A stretch of DNA of 64,000 nt, taken from IMG/VR virus record IMGVR_UViG_3300032312_001225, positions 1,187 through 65,186 of that record. One strand, given 5' to 3'. A program made the translations under genes and the position numbers. Positions 26,192 through 33,478 of this stretch are shown here, piece by piece. Origin of the DNA: a virus. Lineage: Duplodnaviria; Caudoviricetes. Positions within the stretch are counted from its first letter, which is position 1, and every line of letters starts with the position of its first letter. The notes below the pieces were generated by a model, which saw only the letters and a program-made list of their open reading frames with translations, did not search any database and was not told where the DNA came from.

Positions 26192-26275
26192 GGAGAAGAA
26201 GCATCAATGGTGATGCAGTGGACTGTAAATCCGCCGCCTATGGCACGACTGGTTCAATCCCAGTATTCTCCACCA
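26192..26275 (+). tRNA. tRNA-Tyr (GUA)
   Basis: GTGGA-CTGTAAA-TCCGC, long variable arm, A73, CCA. Confidence 0.9.
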
Positions 26276-30302: not shown

Positions 30303-31382
30303 ATGTTATACCTAATATTACATCCACTCAAAAGACCCGCAGAAAAACAAGCAGAACTACTAACTGCTACTCTAGATATGCATGGTATAGAATATATCAA
30401 GTGCAACATTACAGCAGTACCCGATGGCGCTACCATTATTACCGACTGTTTTGTTATGGAAACTCCGTGCGGCGATCCAGGGCACGATATTGCCCTGGCC
30501 ATAATTGATCGCGCCGCCGGACACAATAACAAGATTGTATTTTATTATCCAAGTGAAAGCTACGCAACCTTATCAGCAAGTTTTTGCCCAACCGCAGAGC
30601 AACTGCAAGCAAAAAACATTGATGGATACTTAATCAAGTGCGGCAATTGGGACATACCCGGTTATGTAAAGAACTATAACATGCCCGAGTTCTTTGCGTG
30701 GATTATCAACAATGAGTTTAATCGTGCTAGATTAGAATACACATGCAATCAAATTGATACAGCCGTAAAGACACATAAGTTTTTGTTCTTAAATGGGGAA
30801 TGGCGCACCAACAGAGAACGATTCTTTGAGCTATTTAAAGATGCTGGGCTACTTGATGCCAGTATATGGAGTCATAGATCGGGCAAAAGTGCAGAGGGGT
30901 TTGGTCCAGATTCTGATTGGCCAGATCCATTCGTACATCCTGATTTCCGTTTCTATGCCTACTACCCCAGTCACTACTACCAAACTCACATAAGCATAGC
31001 AAGTGAAACCACACAGAACGAATGGTTCCCAACTGAAAAGACCTACAAGAGCCTGATGCTGGGACACCCATTTGTGGTCTACGGTGGACAGCACAGTTTG
31101 GCCAAGATCCAAGAGTTGGGATTTGAAACCTTTGGATCTTGTATTGATGAAAGTTATGATAGTGTACCATATCCGCAAGAACGTGCGGATCATCTGGTAC
31201 AAAGTCTGCGTACAGCCGGCGTGCCTGAACCTAGCCGCCATAATCGGTTGCACTTCCAAAAAGTGGCTAATTCAGCATACAGTAATTTAATAAAGATCTT
31301 GCAAGATATAGATAATAATGTTATAATAAAAGAGAACTTTGCAGTAGACAACACCATTTTAACCAAATATTTTTTAAACTAA
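30303..31382 (+). CDS. putative glycosyltransferase (GT10-like motif)
   Basis: KFLFLNGEWRTNR; IASETT...PTEKTYKSLMLGHPFVVYG...GFETFGSCIDESYD. Confidence 0.5.
   Translation: MLYLILHPLKRPAEKQAELLTATLDMHGIEYIKCNITAVPDGATIITDCFVMETPCGDPGHDIALAIIDRAAGHNNKIVFYYPSESYATLSASFCPTAEQLQAKNIDGYLIKCGNWDIPGYVKNYNMPEFFAWIINNEFNRARLEYTCNQIDTAVKTHKFLFLNGEWRTNRERFFELFKDAGLLDASIWSHRSGKSAEGFGPDSDWPDPFVHPDFRFYAYYPSHYYQTHISIASETTQNEWFPTEKTYKSLMLGHPFVVYGGQHSLAKIQELGFETFGSCIDESYDSVPYPQERADHLVQSLRTAGVPEPSRHNRLHFQKVANSAYSNLIKILQDIDNNVIIKENFAVDNTILTKYFLN
31299..31327 (+). promoter_or_regulatory. sigma70-like promoter upstream of rpoZ
   Basis: TTGCAA-17-TATAAT inside the 3' end of the upstream gene. Confidence 0.5.
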
Positions 31383-31389
31383 GGCAACC

Positions 31390-31608
31390 ATGATAAAAGA
31401 AACTCGTGCATCAGAAGTAGACGTTGAGAAGTGTATTGCAAAAACAGGTTTTGGTCGGTTTGATCTAGTGGTTGCAGCCGCCCAGCGTGTGCGTGAACTT
31501 AAAATACGTGCTAGAGAATCTGGACAACATATATCGGCAGTAGACGCATTGCTAGAAGCACAAAACGGTCAGCTGAATGTGGTTGATTATATGGCCAAGG
31601 TAAAATGA
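31390..31608 (+). CDS. rpoZ: RNA polymerase omega subunit-like protein
   Basis: 72 aa: DVEKCIAKTGFGRFDLVVAAAQRVREL...SAVDALLEAQNG matches the omega pattern (RF.LV..AA.RAR.L...AL.EI..G). Confidence 0.75.
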   Translation: MIKETRASEVDVEKCIAKTGFGRFDLVVAAAQRVRELKIRARESGQHISAVDALLEAQNGQLNVVDYMAKVK

Positions 31609-32081
31609 AATCCAAGTTGGTCAAAGCATATATGAAGACTGCAGAAACATTCGCAGAGCTCAGTCATGCTAGGCGCTTGCATGTAGGTGCTATTGTGGTC
31701 AAGGATGATAGAATTATCAGTATTGGCTACAATGGCATGCCGGCAGGGTGGAATAACAACTGCGAAGATAAGATATACTCCAATGATTACACAGACAACA
31801 TTGGTTACTGGGAATATCAAGAGGAAGACGGCACCGCATACAACTTAAAAACTAAACCAGAGGTATTACATGCTGAAACAAATGCTATTGCAAAACTGGC
31901 GAGAAGCAGTGACAGTGGCTTGGGTGCTGATTTGTTTGTCACTCATAGTCCTTGCTTGGACTGCGCCAAACTCATTTATCAGTCAGGTATTAGTCGTGTT
32001 TGGTATGGTGTTGAATATCGTAGTAGCGACGGACCTGATTTTCTTAGACGATCAGGTGTAGAAGTAAATCGAGTAGACTAG
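31605..32081 (+). CDS. dCMP deaminase
   Basis: VGAIVVKDDRIISIGYNG, HAETNAI, SPCLDCAK. Confidence 0.9.
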   Translation: MKSKLVKAYMKTAETFAELSHARRLHVGAIVVKDDRIISIGYNGMPAGWNNNCEDKIYSNDYTDNIGYWEYQEEDGTAYNLKTKPEVLHAETNAIAKLARSSDSGLGADLFVTHSPCLDCAKLIYQSGISRVWYGVEYRSSDGPDFLRRSGVEVNRVD

Positions 32082-32087
32082 TAATAC

Positions 32088-32177
32088 GGAGAGCTGGCCG
32101 AGCGGCTGAAGGCACCGGTCTACTAAACCGGCATAGTGGCAACATTATCTAGGGTTCGAATCCCTAGCTCTCCGCCA
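32088..32177 (+). tRNA. tRNA-Ser with ACU anticodon
   Basis: GGAGAGC/GCTCTCC, CCGGT-CTACTAA-ACCGG, long variable arm ATAGTG-GCAA-CATTAT, G73, CCA. Confidence 0.85.
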
Positions 32178-32182
32178 AATAT

Positions 32183-33478
32183 ATGTTAAAAAACACATTC
32201 TGTTCAAGCCCGTGGTTTCATATTAGATTAACTTACGATGGTAGTTATGATGTGTGTCGCTGGAGTAAAAACGGAGTCACTGATTTTAACATACGTACAA
32301 CATCATTGATGCAGTTTTACAACAGTGAACCTATGCGAGACTTGCGAGAACAACTGTTGGCAGGCAACAGGCCACAGGCTTGTGAGCCCTGTTATTATCA
32401 AGACAGTTTTGGTAAACTATCAGGACGTGTTAGACAACTTAACAAAAGTGCTATCACAATGCAGGAGTTTCCGTTAACTTTTCGCTCAAGCCCTCACTTG
32501 CCTGTGTTTGAATACAGCAACGATAACAAGGGTGCATCGAGTCATTTTCCTACAGACTTACAAATAGACCTAGGCAACACTTGTAATAGTGCTTGCATCA
32601 TGTGTGACCCTACTGCAAGCAGTCGACTGGTAGCAGACTATAAAAAACTAAACAAGTTAGATAACAAGTTATTTGCAGAACCTCAATTGTATCGATCTTG
32701 GACAGAAGATCAGCAGGTAGTTGATCGTTTTGTTGCAGAGCTGCAATCATTCCCATACATACGTTACATACACTTCTTGGGAGGTGAAACCTTATACAAT
32801 CAAGCCTTTTACGACATCTGCGAGAACTTAGATGGTCAAGACCTTATAGTTGGTACAACTACCAACGGCACCATATACGACGAACGCATTGAACAGTTGA
32901 TACCTAGATTCAAAGAGTTTCACTTGGGTATCAGCATAGAGTCAGTTACTGGTTTAAATGACTATGTACGTTACCCAGGCCCTACCGATCAGATTTTGAC
33001 AAACATTCTCAAATTTGTTTCCTTGCGTGATCGTAATCCCAGCCTCAAACTAGAACTCAGAATAACTCCTAACTTGTTTACTATCAGTGAATTGGATCAA
33101 GTGTTTGAGTTCATGATCCGGCATGACATCATTGCAGAGAGTTGTAACATCTTACACCAACCCAGAAGCCTACGCATGGAGCTCATGCCAGAAGATATTA
33201 GACAAGAGACTATTAGCAAGTTACAGGCCGTAGTTGATCGCTTGGGCAAGTACACTCCGCAAGTTAATACTCGTAGATCAGATTTAAGTCAGCAGATCAT
33301 TGCACAATTAGCAAATGAGTATTTGGAGTTTGTTAAAACATATACTCGACCTGCTGACGCTGAAGAATCACTAACAGAATTAGTCACGTTTTTAAAAAGT
33401 TTTGAATCAATCAGGAATAACACAATACTAGATTATGCACCAAGATATACAGACTTTCTCAGACATATTGGATATTGA
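32183..33478 (+). CDS. radical SAM protein
   Basis: FCSSPW...VCRW...CEPC; CNSACIMC; FLGGE. Confidence 0.88.
   Translation: MLKNTFCSSPWFHIRLTYDGSYDVCRWSKNGVTDFNIRTTSLMQFYNSEPMRDLREQLLAGNRPQACEPCYYQDSFGKLSGRVRQLNKSAITMQEFPLTFRSSPHLPVFEYSNDNKGASSHFPTDLQIDLGNTCNSACIMCDPTASSRLVADYKKLNKLDNKLFAEPQLYRSWTEDQQVVDRFVAELQSFPYIRYIHFLGGETLYNQAFYDICENLDGQDLIVGTTTNGTIYDERIEQLIPRFKEFHLGISIESVTGLNDYVRYPGPTDQILTNILKFVSLRDRNPSLKLELRITPNLFTISELDQVFEFMIRHDIIAESCNILHQPRSLRMELMPEDIRQETISKLQAVVDRLGKYTPQVNTRRSDLSQQIIAQLANEYLEFVKTYTRPADAEESLTELVTFLKSFESIRNNTILDYAPRYTDFLRHIGY

Follow-up and report, generated by a model that had tools for sequence, protein, structure and literature searches.

Structure and setting of the tRNA gene

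The stretch of DNA analysed here, referred to below as the window, is 64 kb of a 65-kb virus contig from IMG/VR and has 41.9% GC. ARAGORN calls ten tRNA genes in it, one of which, on the + strand at positions 32088-32177, is a tRNA-Ser(act). Its assignment as a class II serine tRNA gene is supported by Rfam (RF00005, 53 bits against a gathering score of 29), by conservation and by its MFE fold, a cloverleaf with a long variable arm. The 7-bp acceptor stem (GGAGAGC/GCTCTCC) is followed by G73 and an encoded CCA, the D stem has three pairs, and the anticodon and T stems have five each, with TAGGG-TTCGAAT-CCCTA as the T arm and TTCGAAT as its loop. The variable arm (32132-32149, +; ATAGTG-GCAA-CATTAT) has a stem of six pairs, where at least four mark the long type, and is closed by a GCAA loop; both the fold and covarying pairs support it. 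A long variable arm is the main identity feature for SerRS, and the gene in addition carries G1-C72, G2-C71 and C11-G24. The original prediction, made from the letters of the sequence, had described a serine tRNA body with G73, a long variable arm, a GCAA loop and the anticodon ACU, and ARAGORN, Rfam and the cloverleaf fold bear this out; its mention of 'perfect stems' needs correction, since the stem of the variable arm contains one G.T wobble.

The distinctive part of the gene is its anticodon arm. The anticodon ACT (A34 C35 U36; 32122-32124, +), which ARAGORN puts at gene position 35, lies in the loop CTACTAA (32120-32126), so that A stands at 32122 where a tRNA-Ser(GCU) isoacceptor has G34. 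The whole arm (32115-32131, +; CCGGT-CTACTAA-ACCGG) has the pairs G30-C40 and U31-A39 in place of the C30-G40 and C31-G39 typical of GCU tRNAs, and its stem is thus of the type found in UCN readers. The loop CUACUAA on a serine body with G30-C40 is what we use below to define the ACU class, and the window tRNA has all of these features. Judged by its sequence, it is an ordinary serine tRNA in every feature save A34 and the stem type.

The gene is closely flanked by two protein genes on the same strand. A dCMP deaminase of the ComEB type (31605-32081, +; NCBIfam ComEB, 81 bits; Pfam PF00383) ends 6 nt before the tRNA, and a twitch-domain radical SAM protein (32183-33478, +; NF033640, 233 bits) starts 5 nt after the CCA. 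Because of this spacing, tRNA-Ser(ACU) would probably be cut from a polycistronic transcript. The best sigma-70-like promoter match, TTGCAA-17-TATAAT with a TG (31299-31327, +), comes from a consensus scan in which the number of such sites upstream of the tRNA is not above that in shuffled sequences; it is a candidate start for a transcript that would comprise a small ORF, the deaminase, the tRNA and the radical SAM gene. The small ORF (31390-31608, +; 72 aa) has weak matches to RNA polymerase omega/Rpb6, both below cut-off (TIGR00690, E=0.0012; PF01192, E=0.0005), and is kept at 88% in three related contigs (L005, L006 and L008). Excision of the tRNA would leave the radical SAM mRNA nearly leaderless, with no visible Shine-Dalgarno sequence; the 6-nt and 5-nt spacing around the tRNA (32081-32183 in the window) is also found in L006.

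The upstream deaminase is the sole deaminase-domain ORF in the contig. It scores 28.8 bits with the TadA model NF008113, for which the cut-off is 150 bits, and its orthologues score 23.9 bits; a search for TadA in the contig and in a complete relative of the phage lineage found none. We reject the upstream gene as a dedicated tRNA deaminase, given its ComEB/dCMP type and a complete relative that is devoid of TadA. Since the phage lineage has no TadA, any inosine at position 34 would need an enzyme of the host.

Conservation of A34 in related phages

A scan of viral contigs with an anticodon-arm pattern that had N at position 34 returned 12 loci, 11 of which are serine tRNAs. Position 34 is A in all 11 and G in none, and their acceptor, T and variable stems differ from one another by paired changes. 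The syntenic relatives of the window, L005 (357 kb), L006 and L008 (220 kb), are all related jumbo-phage contigs with A34. Each has the same gene order (a 359-aa ORF, a small ORF, the dCMP deaminase, tRNA-Ser(ACU) and the twitch radical SAM gene), with flanking proteins that are 72-89% identical to those of the window; the radical SAM orthologue that follows the tRNA is 88-89% identical. In an alignment of 29 diverse ACU tRNAs, RNAalifold identified compensatory changes in 22 of 26 stem pairs and returned a serine cloverleaf as the consensus, with G30-C40 invariant and G73 in 28 of the 29.

By these sequence comparisons the window tRNA-Ser(ACU) is far beyond chance, and an assembly error at position 34 is ruled out by A34 in the orthologues, by the independent assemblies and by the compensatory stem changes. 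The original prediction had proposed a look at position 34 in related phages, with a misassembled G34 or relatives carrying GCU as the outcomes that would count against it. Neither applies, because the syntenic relatives keep A34; the close relatives are all ACU and none is GCU. Megablast of the tRNA region against cultured phages gave no near matches.

A recurrent tRNA in phages that is rare in bacteria

A generic pattern for viral contigs (CTACTAA, 20-34 nt, GTTCRAATC), with calls confirmed by ARAGORN, widened the search. The combined pattern scans yield at least 61 distinct ARAGORN-called tRNA-Ser(act) sequences in IMG/VR contigs. The only unbiased pointer to the ratio of ACU to GCU comes from a D-arm pattern with N at position 34, which matched 14 A and 43 G, and we treat this ratio as a hint.

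Cultured phages also carry the tRNA. The GenBank note of Rhizobium phage RHph_TM30 reads 'tRNA-Ser(act)', an identical ACU tRNA is common to the Salmonella phages 7t3, SE_PL, Munch and PHA46 and to Klebsiella phage fENko-Kae01, and Erwinia phage Hallingskeid carries the tRNA at 97.8% identity. In the related phages RaK2 and PBECO4 the anticodon is GCT and not ACT. The tRNAs of RHph_TM30, 7t3, Munch, SE_PL, PHA46 and fENko-Kae01 are like that of the window in the loop CUACUAA, in G30-C40 and in the long variable arm, but they are 73-79% identical to it and belong to phages of other hosts. We found no paper that describes a phage tRNA-Ser(ACU), although GenBank annotations do show the tRNA.

For bacteria, one genome per species (185,579 species) was searched for the 17-mer of the anticodon arm, and true tRNA-Ser(ACU) was found almost only in Polynucleobacter and in betaproteobacterial MAGs. 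Its occurrence there is sporadic: 3 of 401 sampled genomes of the Polynucleobacter family match the ACU pattern, one of them doubtfully. The description of the anticodon as 'near-absent' in the original prediction therefore holds for cellular genomes but not for phages, and ACU is no peculiarity of one phage, given that it forms a recurrent class in phages, cultured ones included, and is present on Polynucleobacter chromosomes.

The contigs with the bacterial ACU genes are large and chromosomal, and the gene order is often Ser(ACU)-Gly(CCC)-Thr(CGT). A normal tRNA-Ser(GCU) matching the pattern is present in four of the five ACU-bearing genomes checked. A true TadA (187-206 bits; cut-off 150) is encoded by all five, which comprise four Polynucleobacter genomes and one Burkholderiaceae MAG, so that tRNA-Ser(ACU) coexists with the wobble deaminase. 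To judge from its surroundings, the bacterial ACU gene is evidently a hot integration site: one chimeric copy adjoins a tyrosine integrase, and others lie beside panD or an oxidoreductase gene. The chimera, in L014 and next to the integrase, combines a 5' acceptor strand of the host type with a 3' strand of the phage type, and the copy in L015 has a broken 3' end; among the Polynucleobacter loci (L014, L015, L043, L045 and L049) is one strain with four tRNA-Ser(ACU) copies. The chromosomal copies argue for an ordinary decoding role. The D arm and the anticodon arm of these bacterial tRNAs are identical to those of the window tRNA, and this identity is the only pointer to a possible link between the phage and Polynucleobacter. 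A host link sought through the Bug-type protein of the phage failed, as the identity of this protein with its Polynucleobacter counterparts reaches only some 25%.

The anticodon stem of the ACU class is that of UCN readers

ACU and GCU tRNAs were gathered with symmetric patterns, which gave 61 and 97 unique tRNAs, respectively, among the matches listed, and 41 UGA tRNAs were included for comparison. Among these listed matches, G30-C40 is present in 89% of the ACU tRNAs and in 38 of the 41 UGA tRNAs (93%), but in 9-12% of the GCU tRNAs, 79% of which have C30-G40 instead. The 31-39 pair is U-A in 57% and C-G in 38% of the ACU tRNAs, U-A in 34 of the 41 UGA tRNAs, and C-G in 79% of the GCU tRNAs. 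By sequence type, then, the ACU anticodon stem is that of phage tRNA-Ser(UGA) and tRNA-Ser(CGA) and not that of GCU, while all three anticodon bases differ between ACU and these UCN readers. The closest E. coli tRNA to the window tRNA is likewise tRNA-Ser(CGA) (L352), at 78-79% over the full length. The difference in stem type rules out that the class arose by a simple recent G34A change from a GCU tRNA.

In a FastTree phylogeny built with the anticodon masked, the anticodon labels cluster strongly, with 34 changes compared to a shuffle mean of 93. The nearest non-ACU neighbour is of the UCN type for 38 of the 61 ACU tRNAs among the matches listed, in a tree for which the GCU pool was twice as large as the UCN pool. 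Whole-body identity of the ACU tRNAs is about equal to GCU and UCN types and favours neither a GCU nor a UCN ancestry. tRNA-Ser(GCU) is like the window tRNA in being a class II tRNA of the same codon box with the loop C32 U33 N C35 U36 A37 A38 and a long variable arm, and the ACU tRNA of 7t3, in its 3' half, shares 97% identity with the GCU tRNAs of RaK2 (L233) and PBECO4 (L234). It differs in having G34 rather than A34 and, in 79% of the matches listed, C30-G40 with C31-G39, compared to G30-C40 with either U31-A39 or C31-G39 in ACU tRNAs.

ACU stands in for GCU among the tRNAs of phages

ARAGORN finds no GCU tRNA in the 64-kb window. In G406, a 357-kb relative rated 100% complete by CheckV, ACU is the only serine tRNA among 12 tRNA matches. 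Among the matches listed, GCU co-occurs in 2 of 71 ACU loci, and within the 12 listed ACU loci that have arrays of at least ten tRNAs, UGA is present in nine and GCU in two. From this near-absence of GCU beside ACU it follows that ACU stands in for GCU in phage tRNA sets. What is new here is an ACU class with a UCN-type stem that is near-exclusive with GCU; annotations of such tRNAs were already in GenBank.

A34 is infrequent in other split boxes, with 5 cases in 219 bystander tRNAs for Phe, Tyr, His, Asn, Asp, Cys and Ile together among the matches listed. tRNA-Leu(AAG), which also has A34, is as common as Leu(GAG) in the bystander tRNAs of the listed ACU loci (seven each), and among the matches listed it occurs in 5 of 71 ACU loci (for example L060, 9585-9661) and in none of 105 GCU-only loci. 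SerRS and leucyl synthetase ignore the anticodon. This suggests that the anticodon-blind synthetases of Ser and Leu may explain why A34 is allowed, and serine is probably the split-box amino acid for which A34 is tolerated, because SerRS does not read the anticodon.

Several other tRNA genes in these sets are unusual. The window has an eleventh tRNA-like gene (26192-26272, +; Rfam, 35.4 bits) that ARAGORN missed, with the acceptor GGAGAAG/ATTCTCC, the loop CTGTAAA (GTA, a Tyr-like anticodon), an extra arm and an odd D region; its counterpart in G406 lies at 196576-196656 (35.3 bits). In L006 (4705-4780) and in G406 (L353, 298-373), ARAGORN reports a 'tRNA-???' with a two-base anticodon (ac) beside tRNA-Met, which may have an abnormal loop; it makes no such call in the window. 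Viral tRNA-Ser(GCU) genes in L054, L059, L070, L071, L073-L075, L079-L081, L085, L088 and L089 are interrupted right after CTGCTAAG, most of them after CTGCTAAGG, that is, just 3' of the anticodon loop; several different inserts recur, and the interruptions could be integration junctions or introns. Finally, tRNA arrays of two isolate-genome proviral contigs contain an ARAGORN-called tRNA with the amber-reading anticodon CTA (L068, 14018-14099; L077, 2060-2141), a possible suppressor.

Codon usage

In the 18,306 codons of long ORFs in the window, AGT is the top serine codon (388 of 986, 39% of Ser, 21.2 per 1000), so AGU is as common in the phage as had been supposed; AGC makes up 24% of the Ser codons, and AGA 21% of the Arg codons (10.4 per 1000). 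Among the matches listed, none of the 49 ACU loci that offer enough coding sequence reaches 50% GC, whereas 23 of 76 GCU loci exceed it. To allow for this, a GC-matched comparison at 30-45% GC was made between 45 ACU and 40 GCU loci from the matches listed. The AGT share of AGY codons is equal in these (0.68 for ACU, 0.70 for GCU), and we reject an excess use of AGT by ACU-bearing phages for their GC content. 'More AGU' alone therefore does not explain A34: codon supply accounts for a serine tRNA of the AGY box, not for A34 over G34.

AGA, on the other hand, is rarer in the ACU than in the GCU loci at matched GC among the matches listed, at 13.8 vs 16.9 per 1000 (p=0.007), and at 12.9 vs 16.9 per 1000 (p=0.003) after collapsing identical tRNAs. 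This depletion of about 20% is exploratory, because it is one of several measures tried and the data come from short flanks, crudely called ORFs and contigs that are related to one another.

Decoding by tRNA-Ser(ACU) and the state of A34

The explanation that best fits these data, to which we assign a probability of roughly 70%, is that a SerRS-charged phage tRNA-Ser(ACU) reads AGU in place of GCU. The window gene would then encode a functional serine tRNA of a freshwater jumbo phage that has not been cultured, and would belong to a distinct, recurrent phage class that is rare in bacteria and replaces tRNA-Ser(GCU) among the tRNAs of phages. SerRS recognises its substrate by the long variable arm and the acceptor end, not by the anticodon, and the host enzyme would for this reason be expected to charge the tRNA with serine; the ACU anticodon would pair by Watson-Crick pairing with AGU, the most used serine codon of the phage. 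We infer expression, charging and decoding of the window tRNA from its sequence, and charging from identity elements only. Against this explanation count the AGT use at matched GC, which is no greater in ACU-bearing than in GCU-bearing phages, and the supply of AGC: if ACU replaces GCU yet reads AGU only, AGC, with 24% of the Ser codons, is left to a host tRNA.

How far AGC would be covered depends on position 34. Unmodified A34 would read AGU and perhaps, weakly, AGC, whereas I34 would read AGU, AGC and, wrongly, AGA. Our rough odds lean towards an adenosine that stays as it is, give inosine a substantial minority chance and leave a small share to some other modification. TadA needs YUACGAA in a stem-loop, and any single-position change abolishes or nearly abolishes mRNA editing (PMC12255301). 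The loop of the window tRNA, CUACUAA, departs from this motif by U in place of G36 and matches it at six of seven positions. With the TadA substrate tRNA-Arg(ACG) it has in common A34, six of seven loop positions (CUAC-AA) and a stem of the G30-C40 type; it differs by its serine-type body and by U36 instead of G36, a change that abolishes editing in the tested mRNAs (PMC12255301).

It is possible, if tentatively so, that host TadA does deaminate A34, since the loop differs from that of a TadA substrate only at position 36; the tRNA would then read AGU and AGC, fully replace GCU and put some Ser at AGA. About a quarter of natural TadA sites (26%) are off the motif at a single position, and more such sites are seen when TadA is overexpressed (PMC12255301); I34 has also been found on an engineered Phe-tRNA(AAA) in E. 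coli (bioRxiv 10.64898/2026.05.15.725136). The true TadA in all five ACU-bearing bacterial genomes, the replacement of GCU by ACU rather than an addition to it, the lower AGA in GC-matched ACU loci (12.9 vs 16.9 per 1000) and the restriction of Leu(AAG) to ACU loci (5/71 vs 0/105), the last two among the matches listed, all fit such a conversion. Against it stand the absence of TadA from the phage lineage itself, the exploratory nature of the AGA signal, and an AGA share that in the window is still 21% of Arg codons, or 10.4 per 1000. The concern in the original prediction that I34 could misread AGA was in any case reasonable, with a loop one base off the TadA motif and AGA somewhat depleted in ACU-bearing loci. 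A more specific version, in which partial deamination of CUACUAA in TadA-containing hosts would let one tRNA read AGU and AGC, make GCU dispensable and push AGA out of genes, is more speculative still.

Decoding of AGU by a serine-charged tRNA also has to be weighed against two explanations that leave codon reading aside. Some phage tRNAs are known to evade defences directed at tRNAs by means of a changed anticodon loop, and ACU departs from GCU at position 34 as well as in its stem and replaces GCU in phage arrays; A34 and the different stem might thus shield the phage tRNA from an anticodon nuclease, or another defence directed at tRNAs, by which host tRNA-Ser(GCU) is destroyed, as the original prediction had suggested for anticodon nucleases. 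We consider this unlikely. To our knowledge there is no nuclease specific for tRNA-Ser(GCU), and the literature consulted yielded none; the same tRNA is present on Polynucleobacter chromosomes beside normal GCU, where it is an integration site; and the confinement of the class to phage loci below 50% GC, among the matches listed, fits codon logic better than defence logic. Equally improbable is a neutral variant, in which A34 persists without specific benefit only because SerRS ignores the anticodon and the harm is small: E. coli takes no harm from an engineered Ser-tRNA(ACU), and ACU-bearing phages prefer AGT no more than GCU-bearing ones do, but A34 is kept across at least 61 divergent sequences with turnover of their stems, the class has its own anticodon stem and clusters on the anticodon-masked tree (34 changes, shuffle mean 93), and ACU is the sole serine tRNA among the 12 tRNAs of a complete jumbo phage.

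Relation to known A34 tRNAs and implications

According to a 2021 review, no A34 occurs anywhere in the Ser-Arg box, and the tRNAs that bacteria lack are lacking in phages too (PMC8007984). Natural precedents in bacteria are Leu(AAG) and Thr(AGU) of Lactobacillales, Leuconostocaceae and Mollicutes, in which A34 replaces G34 in AT-rich genomes (PMC8007984; bioRxiv 10.64898/2026.05.15.725136). Leu(AAG) is like tRNA-Ser(ACU) in having an anticodon-blind synthetase. However, Leu(AAG) and Thr(AGU) belong to four-fold boxes, where misreading is silent, whereas ACU belongs to the split Ser/Arg box. An overexpressed Ser-tRNA(ACU) is tolerated by E. coli, with better growth parameters in at least two media (Raval et al. 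2026, bioRxiv 10.64898/2026.05.15.725136). That tRNA has the same anticodon as the one in the window, but is a synthetic G34A change on a native E. coli backbone, and its modification state was not measured there.

It is a long-standing question why cells avoid wobble A34, most of all in split codon boxes. While the 2026 preprint had to engineer such tRNAs, tRNA-Ser(ACU) is natural, conserved and widespread and offers a ready test system, and its presence in cultured Salmonella, Klebsiella and Rhizobium phages makes direct tests possible. It can now be asked whether A34 stays bare in a cell that has TadA, whether AGC or AGA is read, and what the tRNA costs or gains the phage. If the inosine reading were true, tRNA-Ser(ACU) would exemplify a naturally occurring inosine tRNA of a split codon box that shapes codon usage.
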